Part shown: one piece after another, positions 2,094 through 18,598 of the stretch
How positions within the stretch are numbered: position 1 is the stretch's first letter
How the letters are laid out: every line of letters begins with the position of its first letter
NCBI GenBank assembly: GCA_030615625.1
Contig: JAUWYX010000002.1
Coordinates: forward strand, 11,995 to 75,994
Direction: 5' to 3'
Source: Dehalococcoidia bacterium
Lineage (GTDB): Bacteria > Chloroflexota > Dehalococcoidia > GIF9 > AB-539-J10
DNA: 64,000 nucleotides
Position numbers and translations under genes: made by a program
The notes under the pieces: model-generated
Seen by the model: only the letters and a program-made list of their open reading frames with translations
Databases searched by the model: none
What the model was told of the DNA's origin: nothing

Positions 2094-2137
2094 CAGTTAG
2101 AACAAAATGTAGGGCTTATACCTGATAAATCAGGCAA

Positions 2138-4484: not shown

Positions 4485-4527
4485 ATAGCGAAACCGACCT
4501 TAAAGGTTAGTTTCGCTTTTGTGTTTA
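4485..4527 (+). terminator. Hairpin plus U-tract in the leader immediately upstream of the regulator gene (possible attenuator)
   Basis: AGCGAAAC..ACCTT-AAGGT..GTTTCGCT extended stem followed by TTTTGTGTTT, ending about 10 nt before the ATG at 4537. About 400 bp of untranslated leader precedes it. Confidence 0.3.
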
Positions 4528-4536
4528 GTGAAAGGG

Positions 4537-5247
4537 ATGAAAGTTCTGGTTGTTAGCCATTCGCAAGACTTATCGCAAGCTATTTCCCCTATCCTGAGAG
4601 TAAGATGGCCAGACTTAAGTTTAGTCCATGTCAACCAAGCCACGGAAAGCCTGGAGCTGATACATAGAGAACAGCCAGACATCGTTATGTTTTACCTCCC
4701 TGAGCGAAGCGAAGGAGCACCACCCCTGAACTGCTTTGACCTCATAAGCCGGATTCGCAGCTTCTCCGGTGTGCCCCTCATTGTTATTAGCCAGAGCGAT
4801 GATATCATGGACAAGGTAAAAGCTCTGGAGATGGGTGCCGATGACTGGGTGTCCCCATCTTTCAGCCCCATGGAGTTTATTGCCAAGGTCAATGCTATTC
4901 TCCGCCGCCGCTCCCCCCATAAGCCTGGTGTTTCCTTTTTCCTGAATGGCAAGCTATCTATAAATTACGACGCTCGCCAAGTACGCATCTCGGGAAAGCC
5001 AGTGAAGCTAACCCCTATTCAATATAAACTCCTTTGTCATTTAATCAAGAACCAGGGAAGGGTATGCAGCGCCGCCGAGTTGCTCCAGCATATCTGGGGG
5101 CCGAACTATAGTGATGAGAGAGAACTCCTGAAGCTGAGTGTTTATCGTTTGAGGTCTAAAATCGAGGAAAACCCCTCGGCCCCAGAAATCATTTTCAATG
5201 AAAGAGGCATAGGCTACGTCATTAGGGCCTCCAGTTCGAGTGGGTAG
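4537..5247 (+). CDS. OmpR/PhoB-family winged-helix regulator with aspartate-less (pseudo-)receiver domain
   Basis: C-terminal trans_reg_C domain (LTPIQYKLLCHLIKNQGRVCSAAELL...YRLRSKIE). The receiver fold is present but the acidic pocket is degenerate: VVSHSQD instead of DD, DIVMFYLPE puts Tyr at the phospho-Asp position, and DWVSPSF has Ser at the conserved Lys. Start chosen at MKVLVV with an AAGGGA SD; the ORF track starts 18 nt earlier. Confidence 0.7.
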   Translation: MKVLVVSHSQDLSQAISPILRVRWPDLSLVHVNQATESLELIHREQPDIVMFYLPERSEGAPPLNCFDLISRIRSFSGVPLIVISQSDDIMDKVKALEMGADDWVSPSFSPMEFIAKVNAILRRRSPHKPGVSFFLNGKLSINYDARQVRISGKPVKLTPIQYKLLCHLIKNQGRVCSAAELLQHIWGPNYSDERELLKLSVYRLRSKIEENPSAPEIIFNERGIGYVIRASSSSG

Positions 5248-5250
5248 AGA

Positions 5251-5475
5251 CACTCCCCTTGTCATTGTGAAGCTCCTCCCCCTGAGTCCTAAACAAATCC
5301 AAATGTCAAAATCCCAATGACAACCGAAATCTAAATACTGAAATGCCAAAACTACTTCGTTTTGTCATTTAGATTTTGAGCTTGCTTTGATATTTATGCC
5401 TTGTCATTTGTCATTGCTTAGCATTCAGGATTTGGTGTCCGAGATTGCTTCACTTCGTTCGCAATGACATAGAGA
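5251..5475. repeat. Cluster of MITE-like elements/fragments (TTGTCATTGC...GCAATGACA terminal inverted repeats) in the intergenic region
   Basis: CTTGTCATTGTGAAG (5251) ... CCAATGACAAC (5296); TTTGTCATTT (5361); TTGTCATTTGTCATTGCTTAG (5401) ... GAGATTGCTTCACTTCGTTCGCAATGACATAGAG (5440-5475). Same family as 17586-17689 and the array inside mfd. Confidence 0.5.
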
Positions 5476-5590
5476 GTGTGCTGAAACCAAAAAGAAACCT
5501 TTTGTAACCCAAAAACAACCTCTGGTAACTGAGTAGCTACTGACTTCTCTGACGTTCCCCATTACACTGGACTTAAGCACTGGTAGATAA

Positions 5591-5995
5591 GTGTTGGCAT
5601 TTAAGGCCGGGTTGACCGTGGAGAAGATTTTGCTTGTGTGTCCCGACTTAGCGATGATAGATAACTTAACCTTTGTATTACAGCATTCCGGTTTTCAAAT
5701 TGTAAACGCTGCCGAGAGCAAGCAAGCTTTGGCGGAGATGGGTAGAAGCTCTCCTGACCTCGTAGTTTTGCGTGAGAACAGCTGCAGACTGAATGGAGAC
5801 GAGCTTTGTATCCGCATTCGGGAGATATCTGATGTTCCCATCATCGTTCTCGGGCAGGAGCAGGAAGAGGCGGCGGGAATCGAGTTTCTGGAAATGGGCG
5901 CTGATGCCTACCTGACCTCTCCCTTAAGTTTGAGGGAATTGCTTGCCAGGGTTCGCTCCTTGCTGCGCCGCACCCGGGCCTCTCAAGGAACATGA
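5591..5995 (+). CDS. Stand-alone receiver-domain protein lacking the phospho-acceptor Asp (pseudo-receiver)
   Basis: CheY-like fold (KILLVCPD..., PIIVLGQ, LEMGADAYLTSP), but DLVVLRENS has Arg at the D57 position and the conserved Lys is Ser. GTG start at 5591 is uncertain. Confidence 0.55.
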   Translation: MLAFKAGLTVEKILLVCPDLAMIDNLTFVLQHSGFQIVNAAESKQALAEMGRSSPDLVVLRENSCRLNGDELCIRIREISDVPIIVLGQEQEEAAGIEFLEMGADAYLTSPLSLRELLARVRSLLRRTRASQGT

Positions 5996-6040
5996 AAGAG
6001 GATAACTAAGATGGAAACTGGTTACAGGGCCAACAAGAAT

Positions 6041-6265
6041 TTAAAGAAGCTGTGTAAACTCAGCGACCGTGAGGTCAGCCTTGCGGATGAGGGTTCGCAA
6101 TGTGCCTGGCTTGAGTTCTTTTCTTCCCCCGGGAACGCTGAGGTGGCGTCCATCGGGATGATAAAGGATGGCATGCCTTCCTTTCCAGTGGTCAAGAGAG
6201 AAGCCAGTCCTTCCGAAGGCTTTGATAGCATCTTCTCCTCTTACCACCGGGAGCTTTGCCATCAA
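6041..6265 (-). CDS. hicA: HicA-family mRNA interferase toxin
   Basis: 74 aa; KLPVVRGEDAIKAFGRTGFSLDHWKGRHAILYHPDGRHLSVPGGRKELKPGTLRTLIRKADLT is the YcfA/HicA fold consensus. ATGA overlap with upstream hicB. Confidence 0.75.
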   Translation of the reverse strand: MMAKLPVVRGEDAIKAFGRTGFSLDHWKGRHAILYHPDGRHLSVPGGRKELKPGTLRTLIRKADLTVAEFTQLL

Positions 6266-6555
6266 ACTGGCACCTTAGGAGCTACCTCTACCTCGTCGGT
6301 CTCAATCCTGAGGGGAAGTCCATCTGCTTTCCGCTCGCTCAGACACCAGCGTATCTCCTGTGACACAAGTTCCGGTGTCTCTTCTGGGAGGGGCATATTG
6401 TGTTTCTCTCGCAGGGCTAGAATTCCCTCGATAGCCTCCCGAATATTAGCCATGGCTTCCTCTCGAGTGTCGCCCTGGCTGACGCACCCTGGTAGAGCTG
6501 GGCAGTGGATGGAATATCCGATTTTCTCAGGCTCAAGAATAACAGTGAATTTCAT
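6262..6555 (-). CDS. hicB: HicB-family antitoxin
   Basis: MKFTVILEPEKIGYSIHCPALPGCVSQGDTREEAMANIREAIEG is the UPF0150/HicB N-terminal domain. Start taken at MKFTV; the ORF track extends 16 codons further 5'. Confidence 0.65.
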   Translation of the reverse strand: MKFTVILEPEKIGYSIHCPALPGCVSQGDTREEAMANIREAIEGILALREKHNMPLPEETPELVSQEIRWCLSERKADGLPLRIETDEVEVAPKVPV

Positions 6556-6851
6556 AAATAACCTCCACCTAAATAGCATAGCAACAGGAGTTTGAAAATG
6601 CAAAATAGTCTGTGTCTAAGAACCTTTTTGATAATAACGACTGCCGACGCCCTGGATCCATTTCCAGGCAGGTCGATCAGGGCGACCGGGCTTCCTTATC
6701 AAGTCTCCTCTCCCTCGATAGGAGTTCCCTCTCCACTTGCTGGAGAGGGTTAGGGTGAGGTCAAGGTGAGGCTGAGTCCAATAAGGCACGCCTTAAATCA
6801 AAGATGAGGTGGGATGATTAATGAGAAACTCCAAAAAAGGAGGACCATAAA

Positions 6852-7499
6852 ATGAAAAGAATAGGACTTTTATGTCTGGCGCTGGTCCTGGCGCTGGGCG
6901 CGCTCGGCGTGGGCTACGCCATGTGGTCCGATACGCTCCAGATTGAGGGCGAAGTGAACACCGGCGAACTGAGTGTGATTTTTGACAGCCAGTATGACAA
7001 CGACCCCAGTGACAATGACCCCAAGGAAGCGGGCTCGTGGAATCTGACCACACTCGAATGGGAGGGGGCAAGATGGGACAAGAACGTAGCTTCCACTACG
7101 TCGACCTTCGATGACAAGTCTGCTAGGATCGTTGTGACCCTCGGCTATCCTTGCTACTGGGGTAGCGTACTCTGGGACGTGCACAACGTTGGCACCATCC
7201 CGGCAAAACTCCATTCGATAACGCTGACGAAGCTGAGCAAGCAATTGGACGAGTGGCCGATGAATAAGGCCCTCGACATCGACACCCGGTACTACGTTGA
7301 CGTCGAGCAGCTGAGAGTAAACAAAGTGCTCCAGGCCGACGATGATTTCAGCTTCATACTAAGTGCGTTCAACTGCACCCAGATTGATGCGTGTCAGGTG
7401 GGCTACCTGGACGTCACGGTGCACGTGGAGCAGGACGCTGAGCAGAAGAAAACGTACGACTTCGTCATTGACTATGTCTTTGCTAACTGGAATGAATGA
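6852..7499 (+). CDS. Secreted protein with SipW-cognate class signal peptide (TasA/camelysin-like), paralog 1
   Basis: N-terminus MKRIGLLCLALVLALGALGVGYAMWSDTLQIEGEV: hydrophobic core followed by G-x-G-Y-A-x-W-S-D, the hallmark of SipW-cognate signals (cf. TasA GGGTWAAFND). About 190-aa mature domain; the three paralogs share a cysteine pair (GYPCYW here, AYPCYY in the third). Confidence 0.6.
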   Translation: MKRIGLLCLALVLALGALGVGYAMWSDTLQIEGEVNTGELSVIFDSQYDNDPSDNDPKEAGSWNLTTLEWEGARWDKNVASTTSTFDDKSARIVVTLGYPCYWGSVLWDVHNVGTIPAKLHSITLTKLSKQLDEWPMNKALDIDTRYYVDVEQLRVNKVLQADDDFSFILSAFNCTQIDACQVGYLDVTVHVEQDAEQKKTYDFVIDYVFANWNE

Positions 7500-7723
7500 T
7501 GAGTGAAGACTGAGAGGAAGAGTTTTTCGGGGAGGGGGCTCTGTCCCCTCCCCAAAGGAGCCCGCCCTTCGGGGGAAACGTGAATAAAAAGGTCTCGGGA
7601 AAGCCCCACCCCCTCTTCTTGGCAGGGGAAGAGGCAAAGGATTATAATGGTCTTTACCCCTTCCCCTGGAAAGGAGAAAGGAATAGTGAAGCTGCCTTTC
7701 CGGCATAAAGATAAGGTGAGGGC

Positions 7724-8314
7724 TTGAGTATAATGAAAAAGAGAAGAAACAGGTTTTCCCGACTGGGACTGCTGCCCATAGTGCTGCTTTTGGCCCTGTG
7801 TCTCACCGGCGTGGGCTACGGCATGTGGTCGGACGAGGTTTACATCGAGGGCACAATCACCACAGGCACGTGGGATGTGGGCGGCACCATCGGCTTCTGG
7901 AAGAACTGGGACAATCACTATAACGAAGCGGAAATCGTGCCGTGGCTGGTGGCCATTAATTCTAGCTCAGAGTGGCTAGGCCCAACCACGGTGGAGGGAC
8001 TAGATGAACTGTTTGCCGCTGCCACGGGACAGTGTCCCCCTATGAAGAGCAAATTCCTGGTCCACTACATGGCTACCCGCCTGGATATCGCCTCTGGCCG
8101 GCTTGATGTGGGCAATACTCATGACGTTACCGGATGGGATGAAGATAACTATCTCGGTCTCCCCAACCCAGCATTGGCAACGCTGTCCGAGATAATTATT
8201 GCCATTGAAGGTAAGTACCCGGCTGAACCTGAAGACCCCGCAGCCTGGCCCACAACGGAGCAGTACGAGACAATGAAGGATATCTGTGACGCTTTGAACA
8301 ATTTGTGGATCTAG
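7724..8314 (+). CDS. Secreted protein with SipW-cognate class signal peptide, paralog 2
   Basis: LLLALCLTGVGYGMWSDEVYIEGTITTG has the same signal architecture. Divergent mature region. Confidence 0.55.
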   Translation: MSIMKKRRNRFSRLGLLPIVLLLALCLTGVGYGMWSDEVYIEGTITTGTWDVGGTIGFWKNWDNHYNEAEIVPWLVAINSSSEWLGPTTVEGLDELFAAATGQCPPMKSKFLVHYMATRLDIASGRLDVGNTHDVTGWDEDNYLGLPNPALATLSEIIIAIEGKYPAEPEDPAAWPTTEQYETMKDICDALNNLWI

Positions 8315-8375
8315 TTCGTCCTTGGTAGGGCGGGGAGAGGCTTCGCCCCTACGGAGGTTCTGGAAGGTTTAAGGA

Positions 8376-9023
8376 ATGACAAGAAAAAGAGTGATAGCGA
8401 AAGGCAACCTGGGCAGGCTGGGCATGTTGTCTCTGGCGCTGGTGGTGGCGCTGGCGGGGATGGGTGTGGGCTATGCCCAAATGCAGGGCGGCCTGCAGAG
8501 CAATGGCCAGGTGCTGACCGACTGCGCCTTCACCTGGGTGGTCTCCAACGACGATGGCGAGGTGACTAACATATCTCCTTATGGAGACATTGACCCCGGC
8601 GATGATAGCGGCGGCACCAGCTATGACAGGTGGGATGCCCAGAGCAGCGACGACCCCTCGAAAGCGCAGGAAATGGGAATTCCCTGCGCCAGGTATGATA
8701 AAGACGTGGCGCGAACCACCGTCCAGATGTCGGATGGCCAGCGGATAATCACCGTGCTGGTAGAAAACGCCTACCCGTGCTATTACCCGACGGTATTCTT
8801 CGGGCTGAAAAATACGCAGAGTTTTTCTGTCAAAATTAAGAGTATTGATATTAGTTACGACATGCCAGAGCTCACCGTCACGTTTGACGGGATAACTGAA
8901 AATCAGGTGCTCTCCACTGGCGAGGAGGTCATCGGTAGACTGGGAATTCACACTGAGCAGTCTGCTCATCAGAACTCAACCTATAATGTTGAGGTGAAGG
9001 TAGTGCTGGTTCAGAAAGAATGA
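8376..9023 (+). CDS. Secreted protein with SipW-cognate-like signal peptide, paralog 3
   Basis: LALVVALAGMGVGYAQMQGGLQSNGQV: same positional pattern, with WSD degenerated to MQG. Conserved ENAYPCYYPTVFFGL block aligned to paralog 1 LGYPCYWGSVLWDV. Confidence 0.55.
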   Translation: MTRKRVIAKGNLGRLGMLSLALVVALAGMGVGYAQMQGGLQSNGQVLTDCAFTWVVSNDDGEVTNISPYGDIDPGDDSGGTSYDRWDAQSSDDPSKAQEMGIPCARYDKDVARTTVQMSDGQRIITVLVENAYPCYYPTVFFGLKNTQSFSVKIKSIDISYDMPELTVTFDGITENQVLSTGEEVIGRLGIHTEQSAHQNSTYNVEVKVVLVQKE

Positions 9024-9126
9024 GTCGGGCTGCTGTTGGGGGCAGTGGGGACATTGGGGCCATTGGAAGTGGTGGTGGTGAGGGGAGGAACGCCCTGAAT
9101 AACCTTCAGATTTAACTGGCTCCCAC

Positions 9127-10341
9127 TTGACGCGCTGGGAGTTTGTCCCTTATAGTGGCGTTACGGTGGATATAAGCCTTAGAGACAACCCGCGGTATAA
9201 CTGGTTGCTTGTTCTCGGTCTGCTGGCTGCCATATACTTGCTGATAAACCTGGGACTGCCTCGTCTGCCCATCGACCCATTCGCCAAGGCTTATGTCGTC
9301 CAGCCCATACTCTGGGGACTCCTGGCCTGGGCAATTCTGGTCCTGCCCAAGTACAGGACGGCCGGCGGATTGAGGCTCAAGACTGCCATTATCCAACTGG
9401 CGTTGATGATTGGCTTTTTCCAGGTGGTGCTCTATGTCATTGGCGGGCTCTTCTCCAGCTTTGGCAGAAGCCCTAATTCTTTCACCCCGACGGGCATCCT
9501 GACCAACCTGGTCTTTGTCGGCGCAATGCTGGTGGGCATGGAACTCAGCCGCGCCTGGCTCATCAATCGCCTGGGAAAGAAACATACTTTCCTGGCGCTC
9601 GCCTTCGTGGCTGTGCTGTATACTGTGCTGGCTCTCCCCTTAGGCCGCATCACCGGTCTCAGGCCGGAGCTTGCATCCATCACTTATGTGAACTCGACTC
9701 TCCTGCCGACACTGGCCGAGAGCATGCTGGCCTCATTCCTGGCTCTGCTGGGCGGGCCGTTGGCTGCCATTGCCTACCGCGGGATACTCCAGGCGTTCTG
9801 GTGGTTCTGTCCCATCCTCCCCGACCTGGCCTGGGTGTTCAAGGGGCTTATCGGTGTGGTGGTACCCATCGTGGGGCTGGCGGTGGCAAATAGCCTTCGC
9901 GTTTCGCGACGCCGGCCCGGGCAGGCAAGACGAGAGAGGGAGGGCTCTCTGGCCGGCTGGATTGTTACCACAGTTATCGCCGTGGCCATAATCTGGTTCG
10001 CTGTCGGGTTGTTCCCGATGCAGCCGACGACAATAATCAGCGGCAGTATGAGGCCGACCCTGGACGTTGGCGATGTGGTCATCATCGCCAAGGTGTCGGC
10101 GGATACTGTCAAGCCAGGTGATATTATCCAGTTCCGGGAATCGGAAGGGGTTACCACAGTACATAGGGTGGTCGAGATTCAGGAAAGTGAAGGGATAAGA
10201 GTTTTTATAACCCAGGGGGATGCCAACAGTGAGCCAGATGCCAACCCCGTCCTCTTTGCGAATGTGGTCGGCAAAGCGGTTTTTGACATCCCCAAGATAG
10301 GCTGGGCAGCCATAGCGGTTAAGGAATTCTTTATGGGATAG
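9127..10341 (+). CDS. sipW: Archaeal/ER-type signal peptidase I (SipW-like) fused to an N-terminal polytopic membrane domain
   Basis: C-terminal 130 aa: TM anchor then GSMRPTLDVGDVVIIAK...HRVVEI...TQGDAN, the S26B/SipW catalytic core (cf. SGSMEPTxxxGD). N-terminal 270 aa has about 7 predicted TM helices with no recognisable family. A TTGACG-17-TATAGT promoter-like motif at 9124-9155 suggests the true start may be an in-frame GTG near 9166. Confidence 0.65.
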   Translation: MTRWEFVPYSGVTVDISLRDNPRYNWLLVLGLLAAIYLLINLGLPRLPIDPFAKAYVVQPILWGLLAWAILVLPKYRTAGGLRLKTAIIQLALMIGFFQVVLYVIGGLFSSFGRSPNSFTPTGILTNLVFVGAMLVGMELSRAWLINRLGKKHTFLALAFVAVLYTVLALPLGRITGLRPELASITYVNSTLLPTLAESMLASFLALLGGPLAAIAYRGILQAFWWFCPILPDLAWVFKGLIGVVVPIVGLAVANSLRVSRRRPGQARREREGSLAGWIVTTVIAVAIIWFAVGLFPMQPTTIISGSMRPTLDVGDVVIIAKVSADTVKPGDIIQFRESEGVTTVHRVVEIQESEGIRVFITQGDANSEPDANPVLFANVVGKAVFDIPKIGWAAIAVKEFFMG

Positions 10342-10642
10342 GTATGAAAGAGCAAAAGACAAATCCCAACTACAAAATCCCAATGCCCAAAACAGTTTTG
10401 AATAACGTCATCGCCAGGGGCGAAACTCCGATGCAATCTTGGGGGAGGGACAATGAAATTACCAAGCATCGACGAGTCAGAACTCAGAATGACAAAAAAT
10501 GCTTCACAAGTTTAGTGCGCGGGCTTAGCCTCGTGCGGCACGACCCTGAAGGGTCGCACTACAGAAATCTGGCGCGGAGGCTAAAGCAGAAACGAAGATT
10601 GACACCTTGGTTTTTACTCTTTAGAATAGGGAGATAAAGCTG

Positions 10643-12247
10643 ATGAAAGTCTGGAAGGCGTTTGCCGGGTCACGAAGGCTAAGAATAACTTGCTTCGCCC
10701 TGGCTGGTGCTCTGCTGGCGGCTTCAGTGGTTGGGCTCGGGTATTCTGTGGCGGCGCCGACCGAGGAAATACCGGCGAAATACGAGCATAGGGGACAGTT
10801 CGACTACACGGTTTACCTCAAGCCCAGTATCCTTTACGGTGATTTCATACCGACCGAGGAAGAAGAAGAGGAGGAGGTCCCTATGGTTTTCTTCCGAAAT
10901 ATCATTCAAGAGGTGCAACTGTCCTTCAACTACAACTTTAATTCCAGCCAGCCGCTGGCTAATGTTACCAATAAGGTGGTGGTGTCAGTAATTGCCAAGA
11001 ACCCTGGGGTGTGGCAGAAGGAAATGACGCAGTTGGAGGAGATTCATGCGGGAACAGAGTTCAAGGTGGATTTTCCTTTATCCCTTGCCTCACTAGAACA
11101 GGTGGTGGCTGATATCGAGCAAGAGATAGGGATTAGCACTACCCAGAGAAACTTCATCATCAGAGCTGTGGTTCATACCACGGCCGAGACTGCTCTGGGC
11201 AAGACCATCGAGGACGAATTCAGCTATGAGTTTACAGCCATAACCACAGCTAAGAAATTAGAACTGAAAGGCGACCTTGAGGGTAGTGAAGAGGGTTCCA
11301 AGGAGGGAATAAGGTATGAAGGGGAAGGCCGGTTTGACTACGAGGTATATCTCAAGCCGAATCAGCTTTATGAAACAGATGTGCTCAGGTCGGAGGCACC
11401 TCCTGTGGCAGAGCCTCCGGCAGAACCTCCGGCATCTCCCCAAACCCTGGGCCCAGGGCTGTTGTACTTTCCCAGGATAATTAGCAACATCAAAGCAAGT
11501 TTTTCTTATCAGTTTCTCTGCGATAGACCGATAAGCGAGCAGTCACAAGAGGTTGAGATCACCGCCACAATAGAGAACCCAGGACAGTGGAGCAAGAGCC
11601 TTGTCGTGGTGCCCGAAACAAACAAAGCAGGCAGCTTTACTATATCCTTTCCCATAGACATACAATATTTCACAATGGTGATTGATGCCATCGGGCAGGA
11701 GATAGGTGTGCGCGGGAGTTCCCACAAAATAGTGATTAAAGCTGATGTCCGCACCGTTGCCCGCACCGATCTGGGCATGGTAAACGAGGTCTATACTCAG
11801 ACATTAAGCGGTAAGCTGGAGGCAAATACTCTCACCTTTGATAAAGAGCTATCTGGGTCTCAATCGGGTTCCATTGGTGGAGCTGCGATACCTGGGGCTT
11901 CCGGGGAAGGTGGCTCGAGGGCACCCTGGATTATTGGTCTGGTGATAGCCTTGCTGGCTCTGGGCTATTTTGGCTGGAGCCAAACCCAACTTAGATTGGC
12001 GCCGGTTAGTGCTGGTGAAGCTGAAGCTGCTCGGGCTAGAAAGAAATATAGGCAGATGATGGTGGATGTTGAGGAGTTGCCGGGGGTAAAACCAACTGAG
12101 ACAGTTATACCCCTGAATTCACTGGACGATTTGGTAAGAATCGCCGATGACCTGGTCAAGCCCGTACTCCATCAAGCGGAGGAGGGGCGGCATAGTTATT
12201 GCATTATTGATAGCGGCGTAAGATACCTGTACGTCATTGAGACCTGA
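10643..12247 (+). CDS. Bitopic membrane protein with two about 190-aa tandem repeats, Glu/Pro-rich linkers and a cytoplasmic C-terminal tail (operon partner of sipW)
   Basis: N-terminal signal anchor (AGALLAASVVGLGYSVAAP). Repeat 1 YEHRGQFDYTVYLKPSILY...FRNIIQEVQLSFNYNF; repeat 2 YEGEGRFDYEVYLKPNQLY...FPRIISNIKASFSYQF. Then a Gly/Ser-rich stretch, TM (WIIGLVIALLALGYFGW) and a roughly 80-aa tail. Confidence 0.55.
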   Translation: MKVWKAFAGSRRLRITCFALAGALLAASVVGLGYSVAAPTEEIPAKYEHRGQFDYTVYLKPSILYGDFIPTEEEEEEEVPMVFFRNIIQEVQLSFNYNFNSSQPLANVTNKVVVSVIAKNPGVWQKEMTQLEEIHAGTEFKVDFPLSLASLEQVVADIEQEIGISTTQRNFIIRAVVHTTAETALGKTIEDEFSYEFTAITTAKKLELKGDLEGSEEGSKEGIRYEGEGRFDYEVYLKPNQLYETDVLRSEAPPVAEPPAEPPASPQTLGPGLLYFPRIISNIKASFSYQFLCDRPISEQSQEVEITATIENPGQWSKSLVVVPETNKAGSFTISFPIDIQYFTMVIDAIGQEIGVRGSSHKIVIKADVRTVARTDLGMVNEVYTQTLSGKLEANTLTFDKELSGSQSGSIGGAAIPGASGEGGSRAPWIIGLVIALLALGYFGWSQTQLRLAPVSAGEAEAARARKKYRQMMVDVEELPGVKPTETVIPLNSLDDLVRIADDLVKPVLHQAEEGRHSYCIIDSGVRYLYVIET

Positions 12248-12419
12248 AAATAGTGCTAACCCGCGATGTAGACTAGAAGCTACATTGCCCAGTGTATAGC
12301 GACCAAGCAACGCCCAAGGTAACCATGAGATTGCTTCGTCTCGATAAATCGGGACTCGCAAAGACAGAGGGGAATTACCAACTCTATGCAGAGTCAGCTT
12401 TCAGGCAGGTTCAGGCACA

Positions 12420-12540
12420 ATTAGAGCTTAGTATCTCTTCCAGCACCTCTGTCCATCTGTCCCCGAGGAGCCTAGTGTCTAACTTGATTTGCGTGGCGCC
12501 TATTTTAACTGCACCATCAATAGGGTTGTCAGTGGTCAAC
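12420..12540 (-). pseudogene. Orphan diverged duplicate of the mfd 3' end (last ~40 codons plus stop region)
   Basis: About 115 nt at about 90% identity to 13715-13830 (AATTAGA..CAGCACCTCTG.CCATCTGTCCCC.AGGAGCCT.GTGTCTAACTTGAT.TGCGTGGC.CCTATTTTAACTGC.CCATCAA.AGGG). It lies on the far side of the DUF362 gene. Confidence 0.6.
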
Positions 12541-12673
12541 GGAAACTGGGAGAGATGGCACGCTTACGCTTGCTTCGGCTGCCGAATGGTTGTCGAGCCC
12601 CCGCTCCTATGGCAGCCCCATCAGTGATGAGTTTCAGGATTTCTTGCCCGGCTTTCTGCCACTCCTCAACAGT

Positions 12674-13615
12674 TCATTCAACTACAATGTAGCGGTCCTC
12701 CCCTGTCCCCAAGCCATGCCTCAAAGCTGTCCTGACCTGGGGTAACTGCCAGGGGTCCGCCACGAGCTTGTTATTGGCCTCATAAGCCAAGAGCACTTTA
12801 ATCGCTTCGACATCAATAGCCACAAGGTCCCCGGAAGCAAGCACCACTTCAGGCTCCGCCAACTGGCCCTTGGCAGGACCACCTGAAACGAAGGCCTTTC
12901 TGCCATCCATGATTATGAGATTTGGTTGCCAGCACAGGCTGATTTCCGCAATCTTTTGCTCCAAGTGGCGAGCGTGAAGAGCACGCCGTTCGCCAGGGTG
13001 CACAAAGCCTACCGCAAGCTTCAGCGCCCCCGAAAATCGTGCCAAAATATGGGTTTTCAGGCAGGGCAGGTATACTATCTTGTCAGCTTCATAGGCTGAG
13101 CGTGGCATGGAAACAGAGCTCAGATAGTCCCCATTAACCTTGACCCTTACCCAATCATCAGGTTTATCATCGAAAGCAATGAGCTCCACCCCCAGATCAC
13201 GCGCTAACTCAAAAATACCCAGTTTCCTGAACACTTTGCTGGTGGGTCTCCATATCCCACCGGAGCTTTCGCCTATTGTAACTTTTGCTCCCGCTTCCAG
13301 GAGGAGTTCGACTACGGCGCGCAGAAACACCAGGTCGGTAGAGCCAGGATACGGGTCCTGGCTGTTAAAATTTGGCTTAAGCAGAACCCTGTCGCCCTTG
13401 TCTATAACCGGCTCCAGGGAACCCAGCAGTGCGATGGCCCTATCAATAGCAGCCTTGATGTCTCCACCTGCCTTCACCTTAGCCACCAGAGCCTGGCCAT
13501 TTCTGAGCCAGGGGTTGGCAGGGCGAGGCCTGGGGTCAACAAGCGGAATATCCCTGGGCGCCCTATCAGTGAGGAAGTGATAAACCCCGGCAATCTTATC
13601 TCCAAAATCCGTCAT
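12674..13615 (-). CDS. DUF362-family protein (inserted between mfd and an orphan mfd 3' copy)
   Basis: LLKPNFNSQDPYPGSTDLVFLRAVVE and the C-terminal block resemble the DUF362 fold. Start set at ATG 13615 with an AAGGAGG SD; the ORF track extends to 13657. Confidence 0.55.
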   Translation of the reverse strand: MTDFGDKIAGVYHFLTDRAPRDIPLVDPRPRPANPWLRNGQALVAKVKAGGDIKAAIDRAIALLGSLEPVIDKGDRVLLKPNFNSQDPYPGSTDLVFLRAVVELLLEAGAKVTIGESSGGIWRPTSKVFRKLGIFELARDLGVELIAFDDKPDDWVRVKVNGDYLSSVSMPRSAYEADKIVYLPCLKTHILARFSGALKLAVGFVHPGERRALHARHLEQKIAEISLCWQPNLIIMDGRKAFVSGGPAKGQLAEPEVVLASGDLVAIDVEAIKVLLAYEANNKLVADPWQLPQVRTALRHGLGTGEDRYIVVE

Positions 13616-13706
13616 TTGTGTTCCTCCTTGCGAACGGCAACTCTTAAGTCCTGCCATGCTCGTAACAAGTTTTTGGTTTTCAAATATTTGTGCATTTCAG
13701 CAACCT

Positions 13707-16700
13707 CTAATTAGACCTCAGTATCTCCACCAGCACCTCTGACCATCTGTCCCCCAGGAGCCTGGTGTCTAACTTGATCTGCGTGGCACCTATTTTAACT
13801 GCGCCATCAACAGGGCTGGTAACTATCAGCCGGCGGCCATCGGTTTGGGGCTTTATCACAATTTGCCTTCCCTGTGTGGAAATAGAGCTTACCTCGGCCC
13901 ACGTAGCCAGAACCTTGATTTTCACCACGTAAAGAAGATTTTCCACAGGCTTAGGCAAAGGACCAAATCTATCTTTGAATTCTCGAGCCATGTCCTCTAC
14001 TTCCTCGATATGCTCCACCCTGGCCAGTCTGTGGTAAAGGCTTAATCGAGTATTTAGATTGGAAACATACTCTTCCGGTATGTGGGCGGCTAAAGGCAGG
14101 GATATGCTGGGCAATTCCTTCGCTTCGCTCGTAATGACACTCTTCCTCACTTCGCCAGCTTGCTTTGCTTTCAACTCCTCCACTGCCTCAGCCAGTAACT
14201 GGCAATAAAGGTCAAAGCCCAGGGCGGCGATATGCCCGCTTTGCTTGACCCCTAAAAGATTGCCCGCTCCCCGAATTTCCAGGTCCTTCATAGCAATACC
14301 AAATCCCGAACCCAGTTCGGTAGCCTCGAAGATAGTCCTGAGCCTCTTATAAGCCTGGGGGGTTAGCTGCCTCCCCTCGTCAAAGAAGAAATAAGCATAA
14401 GCCTGGTTGATACCGCGGCCCACCCTGCCCCTCAACTGATAAAGCTGAGCCAGGCCGAACCTGTCAGCCCGGTCAATAATCAGCGTATTAACATTAGGCA
14501 TATCCAGACCTAATTGGATAATAGTGGTGGTCACCAGAATATCATACTTGCCAGCGATAAAATCCGTCATGACTTTTTCCAATTGCTCTTCAGGCATTCG
14601 CCCATGAGCTATAGCTATTCGAGCTTCGGGCACTAAATCCTGTAATTTGCTGGCAGCTAAAGCAATGCTCTGAACGCGGTTATGGACAAGGAAGACTTGA
14701 CCATTCCTCTCCAGTTCACGCAATACCACCTGCCTGACCAGAGTGCCATCGTAAACCCCGACATAGGTCTGGACAGACAGGCGTTCTTCAGGAGGCGTTT
14801 CCACAATGCTCATATCCCTGATTCCGGTTAAAGACATGTGAAGGGTGCGCGGGATGGGAGTAGCGCTAAGAGCCAGGGTATCCACTTCCTTCCTTATCTG
14901 CTTGAGTTTCTCCTTCTGCACCACGCCAAACTGTTGTTCTTCATCGATTATTACCACTCCCAGGTCTTTGAATTTGATGTCTTTTTGCAACAGGCGATGA
15001 GTGCCGATACATATATCCACAGTGCCATTGGCTAAGCCTTCAAGGACTTCCCTTTCTTTTTCCGGGGGACAGAAGCGGCTCAGCATTTCTACTCTTAAAG
15101 GAAAGGTTTGCAACCTCTCGGTAAAGGTAATGAAATGCTGTTGAGCCAGCACGGTGGTCGGGACCAGAATAGCTACTTGTTTGTTATCCATAACCGCCTT
15201 AAAAGCAGCACGCAATGCTATTTCGGTTTTGCCATAGCCCACGTCGCCACAGATAAGCCGGTCCATGGGCTTGGCTTTCTCCATGTCCTCTTTAACCGTC
15301 ATGATTGCCTCAATCTGGTCCGGCGTTTCCATATAAGGAAATGATGCCTCTAGCTCCTGTTGCCATAGTGAATCTTCACAGAAGGCGAAGCCGGGAGCTA
15401 CCTCCCGAGCAGCATAAAGGTCAAGTAGTTCCTGAGCAATTTCCGCCACCGATTCTTTAACCCTTTTCTTGGTCCTTTGCCATTCCGGGGTTCTCAAACG
15501 GCTCAAGTGTGGTGCCTGGTCGCCAGCACCGATATAGCGGCTGACGCGGCCTATCCGTTCAGTAGGCACATAGAGCCTGTCACCAGCGGCATACTCTAAA
15601 ACAAGGTATTCTCTCTCTACTCCATCGGAGGACATCCTGGCCAGACCGTGGAACTTGGCGATGCCATGGTCAACGTGGACGACATAATCGCCGGGGGCTA
15701 ACTGAGGAAGAAACCATTGGTGAGGTATTGGCCTCTTCTTGCCCGCTCGCGGCTGCTTCACAAAGCCAAAGAGCTCGGCATCAGTGATAAGGGTCAGCCT
15801 GTCATCCATTACCCAGCCTCCGTCCAGCGAGCCCTGGAGTACGGTGATTGAACCGGGCGGAGGTATCTGTACTATCTCTGATGCCGGCGAAGTATGAATG
15901 TCCTCTTTCTGGAGAAGTTCAGCCAACCGATTTGCTTGATGGCTAATTACGACCACGCGCTGTCTTTGTTCCACCATTTGCTTGGCTGTTTTGAGGAACC
16001 TTTCCAACTGACTGCCATAACTCTGAGCTCTGATGAAGGGCAAAGCCTGTCCATAACTCTGGGCGGCATCCCATGTTGCCAGCGCCAAAAAAAGAGCACC
16101 TTTCCTTCCTCTATCCCCTTCTTTCATCTGAGACTCTAATTCCTCCCAGGTGAGGTAAGGAGAGGGAAAGTCCTCAGGCAACTCGCCTCTTTCCATCTTT
16201 GTGGCTCTTAATTCTTGAGTTTCTTCGTTTAGCCTGGTGACGACAAGTTCAATTCCTTCAGGGTCATCGAGAACGAGCAAGGCCTCACCGCCAAGGTAGT
16301 CAAGGACGCTTCCAGCCACCACCTCAGAGCTATCAGCCATTGGCATAAATTCTCTAGCCGGGGTGACAATCAACGAGGATACGGGGCTGGCTGAGCGTTG
16401 GCTTTCCGGGTCGAAGCATCTCATGCTCTCTATCTGGTCGCCGAAGAACTCTATGCGAACTGGCAACTGGCTGCAAGGGGGAAAGACATCAATAATGCCA
16501 CCCCGTTTGCTTATCTGCCCGGGCAACTCGACAACGTCCTCCATTTCGTAGCCCATGCTTTGCCATCGGCGCAGTAGCTCCAGTGGCTCAGCAGCCACGC
16601 CTGGCTCCAAAATATGACAGGCAGCCACAAAATCCCTTTGCGGGATGGTTTTACTCATGATTGCCAGGGCCGAGGTTACTACCAAGGGAGGTTTTGTCAC

Positions 16701-17201
16701 CCTTTCTTTTCCATCATTGCAAGACTCACCTCCCCCTCCGTCATTGCGAGGCACGCCTTCTTTTTCGTCATTGAAAGCCACCGTTTCCCCTGTCATTGCG
16801 AGTCCCGATTTATCGGGACGAAGCAATCTCGGTGGGGCATGGAGGGGCTGGTAAAGGGCCAAGGTGGCTAATGCCCTCAACCTCTCCAGCATCTGATAGC
16901 TGATAGCTGAGAGCTGAGAGCTATCATAAGGCAGGAAGTCGAGCTCAGGGAGACGATGCAACTCGGCCGAAGGGGAACACCAGGCTCGAAGCTGCTCATG
17001 AAGCTTTCGGGCAGTCTCAGGCTGACCAGTCACCACCATGAGGGGCAAATCGAGCTCTTCGTAAAGAGCGGCAATCAAATAGGGCTTGGCAGCATCGAGT
17101 ATGATTGCCTTATGCTCACCTTTGGCTGTGGACAGCTCCCCCACCAGTTGCCTGTAGGCAGGCATTTCTTTGAGCAAAGAAAGCAAACAAGAGAGATTCA
17201 T
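13707..17201 (-). CDS. mfd: Transcription-repair coupling factor Mfd, carrying an in-frame about 50-aa insertion encoded by a MITE-like repeat array
   Basis: 1164 aa; UvrB-homology N-terminus, RNAP-interaction domain, DEAD/helicase motifs (GDVGYGKTEIALRAAF, DEEQQFGV), TRG motif and C-terminal D7. Residues about 108-160 (RLLRPDKSGLAMTGETVAFNDEKEGVPRNDGGGGESCNDGKERVTKPP) are translated from GTCATTGCGAG repeats. Confidence 0.85.
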   Translation of the reverse strand: MNLSCLLSLLKEMPAYRQLVGELSTAKGEHKAIILDAAKPYLIAALYEELDLPLMVVTGQPETARKLHEQLRAWCSPSAELHRLPELDFLPYDSSQLSAISYQMLERLRALATLALYQPLHAPPRLLRPDKSGLAMTGETVAFNDEKEGVPRNDGGGGESCNDGKERVTKPPLVVTSALAIMSKTIPQRDFVAACHILEPGVAAEPLELLRRWQSMGYEMEDVVELPGQISKRGGIIDVFPPCSQLPVRIEFFGDQIESMRCFDPESQRSASPVSSLIVTPAREFMPMADSSEVVAGSVLDYLGGEALLVLDDPEGIELVVTRLNEETQELRATKMERGELPEDFPSPYLTWEELESQMKEGDRGRKGALFLALATWDAAQSYGQALPFIRAQSYGSQLERFLKTAKQMVEQRQRVVVISHQANRLAELLQKEDIHTSPASEIVQIPPPGSITVLQGSLDGGWVMDDRLTLITDAELFGFVKQPRAGKKRPIPHQWFLPQLAPGDYVVHVDHGIAKFHGLARMSSDGVEREYLVLEYAAGDRLYVPTERIGRVSRYIGAGDQAPHLSRLRTPEWQRTKKRVKESVAEIAQELLDLYAAREVAPGFAFCEDSLWQQELEASFPYMETPDQIEAIMTVKEDMEKAKPMDRLICGDVGYGKTEIALRAAFKAVMDNKQVAILVPTTVLAQQHFITFTERLQTFPLRVEMLSRFCPPEKEREVLEGLANGTVDICIGTHRLLQKDIKFKDLGVVIIDEEQQFGVVQKEKLKQIRKEVDTLALSATPIPRTLHMSLTGIRDMSIVETPPEERLSVQTYVGVYDGTLVRQVVLRELERNGQVFLVHNRVQSIALAASKLQDLVPEARIAIAHGRMPEEQLEKVMTDFIAGKYDILVTTTIIQLGLDMPNVNTLIIDRADRFGLAQLYQLRGRVGRGINQAYAYFFFDEGRQLTPQAYKRLRTIFEATELGSGFGIAMKDLEIRGAGNLLGVKQSGHIAALGFDLYCQLLAEAVEELKAKQAGEVRKSVITSEAKELPSISLPLAAHIPEEYVSNLNTRLSLYHRLARVEHIEEVEDMAREFKDRFGPLPKPVENLLYVVKIKVLATWAEVSSISTQGRQIVIKPQTDGRRLIVTSPVDGAVKIGATQIKLDTRLLGDRWSEVLVEILRSN
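16690..16860. repeat. Array of four GTCATTGCGAG-type repeat units plus a TCCCGATAAATCGGGA hairpin, in frame inside mfd
   Basis: CCATCATTGCAAG / CCGTCATTGCGAG / TCGTCATTGAAAG / TGTCATTGCGAGTCCCGATTTATCGGGACGAAGCAATCTC. A related copy at 12325-12375 (CTTCGTCTCGATAAATCGGGACTCGCAAAGACAGAGGGG). Confidence 0.55.
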
Positions 17202-17233
17202 ACGAAAATACCAATGTCCTCGTTAAGTTAATC

Positions 17234-17533
17234 CTATAACTTCTTCTTGAGCGAATCCACCTTCTCCTTCATGCCCTGGGCCTTGTCTCGCCGGTCGTCA
17301 ATTTTAATCGTAGTCAACACCCTGGCCACCCCTTCCCCAAAAGTCCCTTCGTGCATCTTCTTTACCACTGCTAAAATCCTGTCCAAGTCACCTTCTATAA
17401 TCGTCCCCATTGCGGTCATCTCGTACCTTATGTCCTTTTCCTGCTCCAGGACCTTGACCGCCCGTGCCACGTATTGGCTGAGTGAAGAAGTCTTTGTTCC
17501 TAACGGGACAACGCTTACCTCGGCTATTGCCAT
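17234..17533 (-). CDS. MTH1187/YkoF-family (DUF77) thiamine-binding protein
   Basis: 99 aa; VSVVPLGT...YEMTAMGTIIEGDLDRIL matches the MTH1187 family. Confidence 0.6.
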   Translation of the reverse strand: MAIAEVSVVPLGTKTSSLSQYVARAVKVLEQEKDIRYEMTAMGTIIEGDLDRILAVVKKMHEGTFGEGVARVLTTIKIDDRRDKAQGMKEKVDSLKKKL

Positions 17534-17585
17534 TCTATCACCTCCTTACACATCCAGATTTTTTGTATTTGCCTGATTTATCAGG

Positions 17586-17689
17586 CCCTCCGCTTTTTGT
17601 CATTGCGAGCCCCGACTTGTCGGGGCGTGGCAATCTCATTGCCTTCCCACCCAGATTGCTTCGTCACTTCGCTCCTCGCAATGACAAAG
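17586..17689. repeat. MITE-like element with 14-bp perfect terminal inverted repeats
   Basis: TTTGTCATTGCGAG at the left end and CTCGCAATGACAAA at the right end. Internal hairpin CCCCGAC-TTGT-CGGGGC and a GATTGCTTCGTCACTTCG motif shared with the copy at 5440. Confidence 0.6.
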
Positions 17690-17833
17690 GGGAAGCCCAA
17701 CGAATTGGGCAACTACATTTTTAGACTGCCAATATATTATGTCAACTAAACAGGGGTTCTTTCGCCCCCACTCATCGGAGAACCTCTGTGTTTAGTTCTA
17801 TTTTACCAGCAATGATAAAATAACTAGAAATAT

Positions 17834-18598
17834 ATGAAGGAATTAATTGAAAGCCTGGCCAGAAAGGCTGGCGATACCCTGATGAAGTATTTTCGCCAGG
17901 ACTGGGCTTTGCTTAAAGAGCGAAGCACGGCTAAGGAAGCAGCCACCAAATATGATAAAGAGGTGGACAGGTTAATTGTTGAAGAGATTAAGAGACGTTA
18001 TCCTCACCACAGCCTGCTCACTGAGGAAAGCGGCTTTCTCCAGGATGACCCCGATTGGCTTTGGATTGTAGATTCTTTGGATGGCACAGGCGATTTTGCC
18101 AATTTCAACCCTTTCTTTTCCGTGTGCATAGCTTTAATGCATAAAAATGAGCTTGTTTTAGGGGCAATCTGCGCCCCGGCGATTGATGAGTTTTACTTTG
18201 CTGAAAAGGGCAAGGGTGCTTACTTAAACGGGGTAAAGATTCAAGTATCCGATGTATCAGACCTCAGCCAGAGCTACATTTTCTACTGTGAAGGTGGAGA
18301 GAAAAACCGGGGAAGAACAGGCGAGCTCCTGTATAAGGTTTACCCCCGGGTTATGGACATACGCAAGCTAGGTTCGGCTGGGCTGGAAACAGCCTGGGTT
18401 GCCGCCGGCAAAGGAGAGGCTTACTTCTCCACCAGGATTGAGCCCTGGGATGTTGCCCCCGGTGTCTTATTAGTGCAAGAAGCTGGTGGAAAGGTTAGCG
18501 ACTTTCAGGGCAATTCCTGGAAGCCCCAAACAAGCGACCTTTTATTCTCTAACAAAAAGCTTCACGAGAAGATATTGAGCTTGATTTCTTCCCAGTGA
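17834..18598 (+). CDS. Inositol monophosphatase family protein (SuhB/ImpA-like)
   Basis: EESG, WIVDSLDGTGDF (metal-binding motif), WDVAPG. Confidence 0.7.
   Translation: MKELIESLARKAGDTLMKYFRQDWALLKERSTAKEAATKYDKEVDRLIVEEIKRRYPHHSLLTEESGFLQDDPDWLWIVDSLDGTGDFANFNPFFSVCIALMHKNELVLGAICAPAIDEFYFAEKGKGAYLNGVKIQVSDVSDLSQSYIFYCEGGEKNRGRTGELLYKVYPRVMDIRKLGSAGLETAWVAAGKGEAYFSTRIEPWDVAPGVLLVQEAGGKVSDFQGNSWKPQTSDLLFSNKKLHEKILSLISSQ

Follow-up and report, generated by a model that had tools for sequence, protein, structure and literature searches.

Genes and repeats behind mfd

The window, meaning the whole 64-kb stretch of Dehalococcoidia DNA that was analyzed, contains mfd, a single DUF362 gene, a second and orphaned copy of the mfd 3′ end, and a block of variable gene content that extends to a treT-like gene. 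Genomes in which the DUF362 gene stands behind mfd are called carriers here. Read from mfd toward position 1, the features are as follows.

13707–17201, minus strand: mfd (transcription-repair coupling factor), 1164 amino acids, ending ..RSN* with stop codon TAG; from ORF and Pfam
13709–13818, minus strand: resident repeat copy, the functional last ~36 codons of mfd
12674–13657, minus strand: DUF362 gene, 327 amino acids (PF04015, E = 8e-46), between both repeat copies and in the same orientation
12530–12673, minus strand: spacer 3′ of the DUF362 gene (“beta-long”), the truncated DUF362–HTH_17 intergenic region of the carrier haplotype
12526–12533: illegitimate joint at which carrier-haplotype sequence (on the left when read in mfd orientation) meets sequence of the DUF362-less haplotype (on the right)
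12411–12528, minus strand: orphan mfd tail with native final codons ..SSNCA, then a TGA stop (12411–12413)
12248–12410, minus strand: native mfd 3′ flank, in which a REP-like element occupies 12327–12370; collinear with relatives
3851–12247, plus strand: variable block with HTH_17, riboswitch, two response regulators, signal peptidase, DUF5305 and four ORFs without a Pfam or NCBIfam match
10643–12247: DUF5305 gene, within the block
9127–10341: SipW/archaeal-type signal peptidase gene, within the block
4425–4508: c-di-GMP-II riboswitch (Rfam), within the block
3851–4108, minus strand: BldC/excisionase-type HTH_17 gene, 85 amino acids, within the block
2138–3700, minus strand: treT-like gene, with the right-hand conserved border at about 3650–3750

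The first-pass annotation of this DNA had noticed that the end of mfd recurs beyond one DUF362 gene of the same orientation, and this was confirmed. Positions 12419–12528 and 13709–13818 form a gapless direct repeat with 98 of 110 nt identical (89.1%; E-value 4e-37 for the pair in an in-window BLAST), and the longest identical run between resident and orphan copies is 14 nt. A third copy of the 110-nt unit was not found within the 64-kb window, and the repeat is therefore not dispersed; a REP or MITE was rejected as a candidate because the unit occurs only twice in the window. Across 160 related loci the unit was seen only as mfd tails or as orphans of such tails, so that a dispersed repeat unrelated to mfd, one of the ways in which the original observation might have been undone, did not materialize.

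The mfd product carries the Pfam domains DEAD, Helicase_C, TRCF, CarD_TRCF_RID and UvrB_inter, and its C-terminal 400 amino acids share 98% identity with those of L001. The nearest alleles to the resident copy are those of carriers L001 and L089, with 2 differences in 99 nt, suggesting vertical descent of the resident copy in this lineage. The match between the two copies ends precisely at ...TCTAATT. After this point the resident copy has AG, giving the stop codon TAG and the protein end ..RSN*, and the orphan has GT GCC TGA, giving ..SSNCA*, the same ending as in most relatives that lack DUF362. In its old frame the orphan is open for 38 codons, with a stop 12 codons upstream of the homology, and its translation is the family consensus. 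Its nearest functional tails, those of carriers L003, L002 and L081 and of the non-carrier L004, differ from it at 6–7 of 99 nt, nearly all of these differences being synonymous, and it differs from its own resident copy at 10 of 99 nt (6 synonymous, 4 non-synonymous). The orphan is undecayed, and its differences from the functional alleles are nearly all synonymous; it was part of a coding sequence until a fairly recent time. Among window-type orphans about 8 synonymous and 7 non-synonymous changes were counted by eye; purifying selection on the orphan among these loci was accordingly rejected as at most marginal, and later exchange with functional alleles explains it. The spacer and orphan together yielded no RNA structure (fold z = 0.48), promoter or terminator, and the Rfam matches in the window were a tRNA and the c-di-GMP-II riboswitch.

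Relatives with and without the DUF362 gene

Close homologues of the DUF362 gene were found on 55 related contigs, and the segment behind mfd in all carriers is the DUF362 gene with its leader from 13708. The mfd/DUF362 junction in carriers reads …TCTAATT and then AG, and the form TCTAATTA[G/A] is common to nearly all of the 42 contigs that show the mfd end. The orphan is absent from 42 of the 51 carriers with enough downstream sequence. It is present in the other nine, with a DUF5305/SipW-type cluster right after it in every case (9/9). The carriers without an orphan have resident-type mfd ends and not the orphan-type end that the first-pass annotation had named as a sign of local duplication. 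More distant DUF362 orthologues (68–82% amino acid identity) are not adjacent to mfd. Since the junction is common to nearly all 42 contigs and the orphan is missing from 42 of 51 carriers, DUF362 is neither a recent cargo nor the cargo of the event that made the orphan. A simple insertion of the DUF362 segment would show DUF362 followed directly by GTGCCTGA and the native flank, with no orphan.

Relatives that lack DUF362 provide the empty site. In L012, L009 and L014 an uninterrupted mfd is followed directly by the flank and DUF5305 gene that lie behind the orphan in the window, so that the comparison proposed at the outset, a search of related genomes for an intact mfd next to this neighbor, gave a positive answer. 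L012 is collinear with window positions 12512 to 11535 without a break, and the native flank at 12248–12410 matches the sequence after intact mfd in L004, L006, L010, L030 and L012. The orphan thus marks an older junction of mfd and its neighbor. The first-pass reading of the locus is supported in part, by the empty site in these three genomes, by the native ..SNCA* end and native flank retained with the orphan, and by the distant DUF362 orthologues that do not adjoin mfd.

The spacer behind DUF362 tells a second part of the history. In alignments it is collinear with carrier L081 up to ...CCGTTGACCACTG, and L099 aligns by BLAST as far as this very point, window position 12531. Beyond ~12530, L081 and L099 run on into the 3′ flank of an inverted HTH_17 gene, like other carriers. 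The spacer is therefore a truncated carrier intergenic region, and the mfd–DUF362 arrangement is older than the joint. The same joint is common to seven independent assemblies (the window, L092, L094, L095, L101, L123 and L153), although all sequences compared are metagenome assemblies. To the left of ~12530 these window-type loci match carriers L081 and L099, and to the right they match DUF362-less genomes, namely L012 for the window and L009 for L092 and L153. Several haplotypes occur together in a single metagenome, Ga0315543, the source of L082, L094, L098 and L106. Comparison with L081/L099 and with class-1 mfd alleles places the joint, at ~12530, to a precision of a few nt. Microhomology at the joint is patchy, with GTTGA..CCAC against the class-1 mfd allele of L008, GTTGATGGCCACCAG followed by CCCTATT; the bases shared are the 4-nt CCAC and the nearby GTTGA only, and 3–4 nt are left over. 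The HTH_17-side continuation of the L081/L099 spacer is missing from the window type, a loss of recipient DNA such as characterizes homology-facilitated illegitimate recombination (HFIR). A comparison of the 50 nt just upstream of the orphan with mfd and with REP-like cassettes gave no more than weak and unconvincing similarity; this stretch is carrier intergenic spacer.

At the other side of the locus, all locus types are collinear with the window from about window 3634–3750 downward, and carriers are collinear with it from window ~3650 to position 1. Between mfd and this border, the variable block stands directly after intact mfd in L009 and L014, is absent in L002, L003 and L004, and is replaced by other genes in many loci. 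The flanks of the window are closest to carriers on both sides: the upstream flank is 93–94% identical to carriers vs. 90–91% to DUF362-less genomes, and otsAB, adjoining treT, is 94–96% identical to carriers, inside the carrier range, vs. ≤90% to DUF362-less genomes. An argument from carrier background is weak, as only three clear DUF362-less genomes bearing the DUF5305 cluster were sampled. The treT gene itself is 88–91% identical to carriers that are mostly 92–99% identical among themselves, and its first 300 nt are 94% identical to several carriers. Sliding identity shows a step up from 88–91% in the treT body to 94–98% in otsAB that is suggestive but not clean.

Trees of the left flank and of the block disagree. 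The 10-taxon mfd tree splits carriers from the three A-types with 100% bootstrap. In the tree of DUF5305, monophyly of the A-types receives 0% support and L012, an A-type, joins L117 and L093 with 99%; the DUF5305 cluster has therefore crossed the boundary between carriers and non-carriers. In a larger neighbor-joining tree without bootstrap, a few DUF362-less loci (L004, L009 and L030) fall among carriers, which points to heavy recombination or to presence/absence polymorphism. It had been suggested that a phylogeny of the tail segments would reveal the ancestral copy. This was rejected for tails alone, which at 99–110 nt are too short and too recombined; the informative features are the stop codon and flank. 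The joint, the two-sided collinearity, the distribution among relatives and the conflict between trees are direct results of these comparisons.

Orphan tails of at least six different constructions occur behind mfd in Dehalococcoidia: that of the window type and those of L093, L124, L015, L023 and L076. Orphan lengths are about 118 nt in the window type and at least 390 nt in L093, and in L124 a cassette plus tail is present. The orphans stem from different mfd alleles, a class-1 edge in the window type (D-type), a long class-3 cassette in L093 and a short class-3 cassette in L124; the last is a deep-branching carrier with DUF362, a decayed orphan (61% amino acid identity) and DUF5305. A hypervariable in-frame REP-like cassette lies ~110 nt before the mfd stop, and two of the orphans begin there. 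Cargo next to orphan tails ranges from a toxin-antitoxin-like pair to a 9-kb cluster. There is some small chance that the mfd tail is a recurrently used recombination arm, as opposed to the site of a one-off scar. If REP-associated breakage or pairing at the cassette drives the events, the result would be a recombinase-free, repeat-guided stacking of blocks behind a housekeeping gene, and a kept orphan would allow later block swaps without loss of DUF362.

Origin of the orphan tail

The orphan may well be the scar of a recombination event that brought ~9–10 kb into a carrier at the left edge of a hypervariable locus, and we hold this explanation with moderate confidence on the basis of the sequence comparisons. 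The hypervariable locus extends from mfd (plus DUF362 in one clade) to treT and exists as two haplotypes. The carrier haplotype has DUF362 directly behind mfd, then variable content and often an inverted small HTH gene, and the DUF362-less haplotype has mfd with its native ..SNCA* end, which the DUF5305/SipW-type cluster can adjoin directly. An L081/L099-like carrier chromosome would have taken up roughly 9–10 kb from a DUF362-less relative, in a piece that began about 118 nt before the end of the donor mfd and continued through native flank, cluster and HTH gene towards treT. The right end of the imported piece would have recombined by homology, presumably through a crossover in treT and the right-hand border or further right, and on the left an illegitimate joint would have formed near 12530, within the spacer 3′ of the DUF362 gene, displacing resident DNA. 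The event would then have had the character of HFIR, with the donor mfd tail as a passenger on the imported piece, and the orphan would later have become a homology arm for further exchange with DUF362-less genomes. Which way the DNA moved, how it was taken up and where the right-hand crossover fell are inferred.

The direction could also have been the reverse, which we consider somewhat unlikely. A DUF362-less genome with mfd next to the cluster would have received the 3′ part of a carrier mfd together with DUF362 and spacer, anchored on the left by mfd homology and joined illegitimately on the right 118 nt before the recipient mfd stop, or, in a variant, one crossover in the tail would have integrated a circularised fragment. 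The working 3′ end would come from the incoming DNA and the recipient end would become the orphan, which is the topology originally proposed, minus the integrase. Such a transfer yields exactly the structure seen, with the same joint, and it agrees with the native end and flank of the orphan; linear DNA has, moreover, been documented to circularise and then integrate through a single crossover (PMC3240628). The larger mfd tree has some DUF362-less loci among the carriers, which makes a closely related recipient conceivable. However, both flanks, mfd and otsAB are closest to carriers and no sampled DUF362-less genome is as close, and the divergence of treT and the conflict between DUF5305 and mfd trees would need further exchanges.

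It is improbable that the window arrangement is the original product of the first DUF362 insertion, an event at the base of the carrier clade that would also have duplicated the mfd tail, and that later deletions gave rise to all carriers without an orphan. The deep-branching L124, with its DUF362, decayed orphan and DUF5305, is consistent with such an origin, which would also explain why homology stops exactly at TCTAATT. But the spacer is a truncated DUF362–HTH_17 intergenic region, which was needed beforehand, and the D-type, L093 and L124 orphans come from different mfd alleles with different joints. Further, the window orphan is undecayed despite a divergence of up to about 15% among carriers, the phylogeny of DUF5305 does not follow vertical descent, and no shared derived substitutions unite all orphans apart from functional tails.

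Site-specific integration into the mfd 3′ end, as the first-pass annotation read the locus, is very improbable. A small DUF362 element would have been inserted by an integrase, its attP supplying the replacement end, and the recombinase would later have been lost. Direct repeats around a single same-strand gene and an empty site in relatives are what such an element predicts, and the locus does contain a small gene of the excisionase-family HTH type. That recombinases are gone had been said from the start, and indeed none was found by Pfam or NCBIfam in the main ORFs of window 102–18598 or in the neighbors in L089, L084, L015 and L023; the only excisionase-like match in this search was the 85-aa BldC/excisionase-type HTH. 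This gene scores best as BldC-family, below the cut-off of that model, and it lies 8 kb away beside the cluster, from which it is transcribed divergently. Moreover, DUF362 occurs without a second repeat in 42 of 51 carriers, there is no constant att-like boundary, orphan lengths and joints vary between lineages, the interval from DUF362 to the orphan is a truncated host intergenic region, and the identical run between copies is 14 nt at most. Compared with site-specific integration, a combination of homologous and illegitimate recombination is the better fit. A tandem duplication of the mfd tail within this genome with subsequent divergence, or a chance or dispersed repeat, accounts for the existence of the repeat and nothing more and is effectively refuted: the differences between copies are those between functional alleles of different lineages, functional tails of other genomes are nearer to the orphan (6–7 differences) than the resident copy is (10), the alleles of L001/L089 are 2 differences away from the resident copy, no third copy is in the window, and the orphan has the stop and flank of the other haplotype.

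Comparison with known systems

A gene end, one gene and an orphan end can be produced by integration of a mobile element or by recombination between chromosome versions that differ by an older insertion. At this locus the gene between the repeats is probably not what moved, a warning against calling integration sites in scans that look at nothing but repeats. The event is of an ordinary kind, well documented here, and no new kind of system. Its value is as a well-sampled natural case, from a slow-growing and uncultured lineage, of joining that was probably homologous on one side and illegitimate on the other, with the region from mfd/DUF362 to treT as a hotspot for swapping blocks of secreted and cell-surface genes.

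HFIR depends on RecA and integrates linear DNA that a cell has taken up. It accompanies the uptake of related DNA, is described for Streptococcus pneumoniae, Acinetobacter baylyi and Pseudomonas stutzeri, and is defined by one homologous end, one illegitimate end with 3–10 bp of microhomology and loss of recipient DNA, with laboratory imports usually of about 1 kb (PMC3240628). The event proposed here would agree in that one end would lie in continuous homology and the other would be a homology-free joint with few microhomology bases at most; in addition, resident DNA was lost where the HTH_17 side of a spacer like that of L081/L099 would have continued beyond the joint. In contrast to laboratory HFIR, the inferred block is about 9–10 kb, the microhomology is patchy, and the process is reconstructed from comparative data alone in an uncultured lineage.

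At rhs, CDI and T6SS effector-immunity loci, C-terminal displacement leaves orphaned 3′ regions, for which HFIR is a proposed mechanism, with no involvement of integrase (PMC5361080). There, too, a full-length gene is followed by orphaned 3′ fragments, one or several, from the same gene family, left when the older end gives way to an incoming module that is anchored in conserved sequence. Unlike those loci, mfd is a conserved housekeeping gene and not a polymorphic toxin, no immunity gene is present, and the orphaned tail is the conserved part instead of a variable toxin tip, the variable content lying outside the gene.

The e14 element and phage 21 integrate in the 3′ end of icd in E. coli and carry a replacement end; elements of this type encode an integrase, and their att core and ends are fixed. 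The order of gene, cargo and orphan 3′ end is the same in the window, as are the intact host gene and the divergence of copies mostly at silent sites. Unlike such elements, the locus yielded no recombinase, its ends vary, and a second copy is missing from most genomes that have the “cargo”.

Capsule and O-antigen loci are hypervariable surface-structure loci that are swapped by homologous recombination in conserved flanking genes. In the same way, the conserved mfd/DUF362 and treT enclose content that close relatives have, lack or have replaced; it consists of secreted and cell-surface genes, and its phylogeny conflicts with that of the flanks. Unlike those loci, one flanking gene here has left a duplicated fragment of itself, which is now an internal second arm.

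The two mfd ends and the empty site

The repeat behind mfd comprises 12419-12528 and 13709-13818, 110 nt aligned gap-free with 98 identical (89.1%), at most 14 of them in a row, and an in-window BLAST E-value of 4e-37; the same search found no third copy in the 64-kb window. The diverged second mfd tail beyond DUF362 described by the first-pass annotation was therefore borne out. The copy at 13709-13818 is the true 3' end of mfd, and a single gene lies between the copies:

13707-17201, minus strand: mfd, 1164 aa, with DEAD, Helicase_C, TRCF, CarD_TRCF_RID and UvrB_inter domains
12674-13657, minus strand: DUF362 gene, 327 aa (PF04015, E=8e-46)

Homology stops exactly at ...TCTAATT, beyond which the resident (functional) copy has AG, forming a TAG stop and the protein end ..RSN*, and the orphan, the extra copy beyond DUF362, has GT GCC TGA, ending ..SSNCA*.

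Related loci comprised 80 from Dehalococcoidia species-representative genomes scanned with the Mfd C-terminus (L001-L080) and 80 from a metagenome scan with DUF362 (L081-L160). An uninterrupted mfd was found in L012, L009 and L014, followed directly by the same flank and convergent DUF5305 gene as behind the window orphan, and the L012 alignment to window positions 12512..11535 was unbroken. Most DUF362-less relatives also had an orphan-like mfd end, ..SNCA* or similar, and the orphan and its flank therefore represent the older junction of mfd with its neighbour.

In its 33 conserved codons the orphan encodes the family consensus. Its 6-7 nt differences from the functional tails of L003, L002, L081 and L004 are nearly all synonymous (5:1, 6:1, 6:1 and 5:2), so that it was coding until relatively recently. 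Against its own resident copy there are 10 differences (6:4), and the resident has 2 against L001/L089, so the copies are alleles of different lineages, the orphan being nearer to tails of other genomes than to its own. Local duplication is refuted by these counts.

Carriers, orphans and the joint

There were 55 close DUF362 homologues (at least 84% amino acid identity), and in the 42 with a visible adjacent mfd end nearly all had the junction TCTAATTA[G/A]AGG.TGCTG. Carriers, with DUF362 directly behind mfd, diverge by up to about 15% in nucleotide sequence, and distant orthologues (68-82% amino acid identity) do not adjoin mfd. A junction so widely shared, with distant orthologues elsewhere, means that DUF362 moved behind mfd once, far in the past.

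Orphans were absent from 42 of the 51 carriers whose downstream sequence reached 400 nt or more; there DUF362 was followed by an inverted small HTH gene, the treT flank or other cargo. All nine orphan-bearing carriers had the DUF5305/SipW-type cluster directly behind the orphan, whose company is thus the cluster, not DUF362. In one metagenome (Ga0315543; L082, L094, L098, L106) three carrier haplotypes occurred together, namely orphan plus cluster, inverted HTH gene and a direct DUF362-treT junction, so that recombination partners are physically in one place.

One joint was common to seven independent assemblies (the window, L092, L094, L095, L101, L123 and L153). In mfd orientation its left side runs through DUF362 and a 144-nt spacer up to ...CCGTTGACCACTG, collinear with carrier L081, and the L099 BLAST alignment stops at the same point; beyond it L081 and L099, like other carriers, run on into sequence flanking the inverted HTH_17 gene on its 3' side. 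The spacer is therefore truncated carrier intergenic region, and the mfd-DUF362 arrangement thus predates the joint. From its start, ACA[A/G]CCCTATTGATGG..., the right side follows a class-1-type mfd allele collinearly through its final ~118 nt, native stop and native flank and on into the cluster. Microhomology at the joint was patchy only (GTTGA..CCAC against GTTGATGGCCACCAG followed by CCCTATT in L008), and no RNA-structure, promoter or terminator signals were found in spacer or orphan.

The DUF362 3' untranslated region (12578-12628) exists in two unrelated versions that part at 12628: AATAATGACTGAAAAAG..GGAGGAAAAG in most carriers including deep L124, and TCACTGATGGGGCTGCC..CATTCGGCAGC in the window type, L081, L093 and carriers running straight into treT. 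Three distinct continuations begin at the same base after ..CATTCGGCAGC (12578).

The L093 orphan is at least 390 nt long with a different (long class-3) cassette, and its joint lies ~48 nt closer to DUF362, at the equivalent of 12578. Deep-branching carrier L124 has a short class-3 cassette and tail decayed to 61% amino acid identity, and L117 has the cluster without an orphan tail. Three DUF362-less loci had further independent arrangements of mfd, unrelated cargo and orphan tail:

L015:1652-6264: amidohydrolase and MBL-fold genes over 4 kb, followed by a ~320-nt orphan
L023:11242-12447: one GATase-like gene, then an orphan
L076:6089-6880: putative toxin-antitoxin pair, then an orphan

Behind the L023 orphan lies an NADH dehydrogenase gene, which in L018 sits directly next to an intact mfd. 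The L076 cargo reads in translation like a RelE/AbrB-type pair. No recombinase was found among the scanned cargo genes of L015 and L023. Orphan length, joint and cargo all vary between loci.

The variable block and repeats within mfd

The block behind the window orphan (3851-12247) contains:

3851-4108: BldC/excisionase-type HTH gene, divergent from the ORF run
4425-4508: c-di-GMP-II riboswitch (61.5 bits), ahead of the ORF run
Same-strand ORF run behind the riboswitch: OmpR-type response regulator, second receiver protein, four ORFs of 194-215 aa, signal peptidase, DUF5305

The four ORFs had no Pfam or NCBIfam match. The signal peptidase, of SipW/archaeal type, has a long N-terminal region that we guess to be membrane-spanning. 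The block resembles a secreted-fibre or matrix cluster under c-di-GMP control. Many relatives have the small HTH_17 gene, with its upstream region, right behind mfd or DUF362, turned one way or the other relative to mfd (L007, L010, L021, L081-L089 and others versus window 3851-4242, L020, L025 and L029), suggesting repeated inversion or re-insertion.

Directly before its ~36 conserved final codons, mfd has a hypervariable in-frame cassette (13819-13851; homologous spot in L001-L030 and L081-L124). It reads DGRRLIVTSPV in the window, L001, L002, L008, L019, L020 and L023; the hairpin-containing SPLKIRGxGGVMSKYL (tcccctcttaagataagagggg) in many relatives; and ETVIASxAKQS.. (GTCATTGCGAGCG.AGCGAAGCAATCTC) in others, and in longer form in L007, L009, L017 and the L093 orphan. 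The cassettes have the look of REP/MITE-type repeats that a housekeeping protein tolerates in frame. In the N-terminal part of Mfd, 16695-16851 (..RLLRPDKSGLAMTGETVAFNDEKEGVPRNDGGGGESCNDGKERV..) is 157 nt against ~13 nt in L001 and most relatives, an in-frame surplus of 144 nt (48 codons) across which L013, L081, L093 and L118 align; it includes a REP-like copy (16787-16830), others lying at 12327-12370, 17598-17639 and 17653-17694.

Proposed recombination between haplotypes, and known systems

The arrangement fits best with recombination of a carrier haplotype and a DUF362-less haplotype, joined illegitimately at one end and by homologous crossover at the other. Among 10 taxa, the mfd tree (1361 nt) gave 100% bootstrap to the split between carriers and three genomes that have the cluster without DUF362; in the DUF5305 tree (701 nt) the grouping of those three had 0% support and DUF362-less L012 fell with carriers L117 and L093 (99%), so that the cluster has been exchanged across the carrier/non-carrier boundary. 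Right of the orphan the window matches L012, L004 and L093, and the L092-L153 flank matches L009; the region was exchanged again after the shared joint formed, the orphan thus serving as a homology arm.

Window mfd is closest to L001/L089 (95.5%), genes upstream have 93-94% identity to L002 versus 90-91% to DUF362-less loci, and otsAB has 94-96% to carriers and at most 90% to non-carriers. The surroundings are thus carrier-like on both sides. Adjoining the block, treT is only 88-91% identical to carriers that mostly share 92-99% among themselves, which hints at a right-hand crossover near the treT/otsAB boundary, in an identity profile that is not clean. Flanks that resemble carriers, the anomaly in treT and the conflict between cluster and mfd trees lead us to favour import of a block of tail, cluster and HTH gene, possibly with treT, into a carrier, to which we give about an even chance.

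The mirror-image event, in which a genome lacking DUF362 receives a carrier fragment made up of the 3' part of mfd, DUF362 and the spacer, is possible but rather unlikely. It yields the same joint and keeps the topology of the first-pass annotation without an integrase; few DUF362-less genomes were sampled, and in a larger, unbootstrapped neighbor-joining tree some of them lie among carriers. That annotation had proposed site-specific integration of DUF362 into the mfd 3' end, displacing the older end. The orphan as older junction, with its empty site in L012, L009 and L014, stands; integration itself is disfavoured by the lack of a recombinase in the window block and the relatives inspected, by inconstant ends and by the missing second repeat in most carriers (42 of 51). 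Ancestral insertion-duplication is disfavoured because the spacer is truncated, orphans differ in allele and joint, and the orphan is undecayed. Beyond the import into a carrier, we think it improbable that the mfd tail and its in-frame REP-like cassette form a recurrent, repeat-guided stacking site for gene blocks.

The mfd locus has the same topology as e14/phage 21 at icd. It lacks the traits that define an integrative element. In mechanism the proposed event resembles homology-facilitated illegitimate recombination, which PMC3240628 defines by a homologous end, an illegitimate end sharing 3-10 bp of microhomology and the loss of DNA from the recipient. It also resembles the "C-terminal displacement" by which 3' regions become orphaned at rhs, CDI and T6SS loci (PMC5361080). 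The event is ordinary and known in kind; this new, well-documented case lies at a housekeeping gene of an unusual host lineage.
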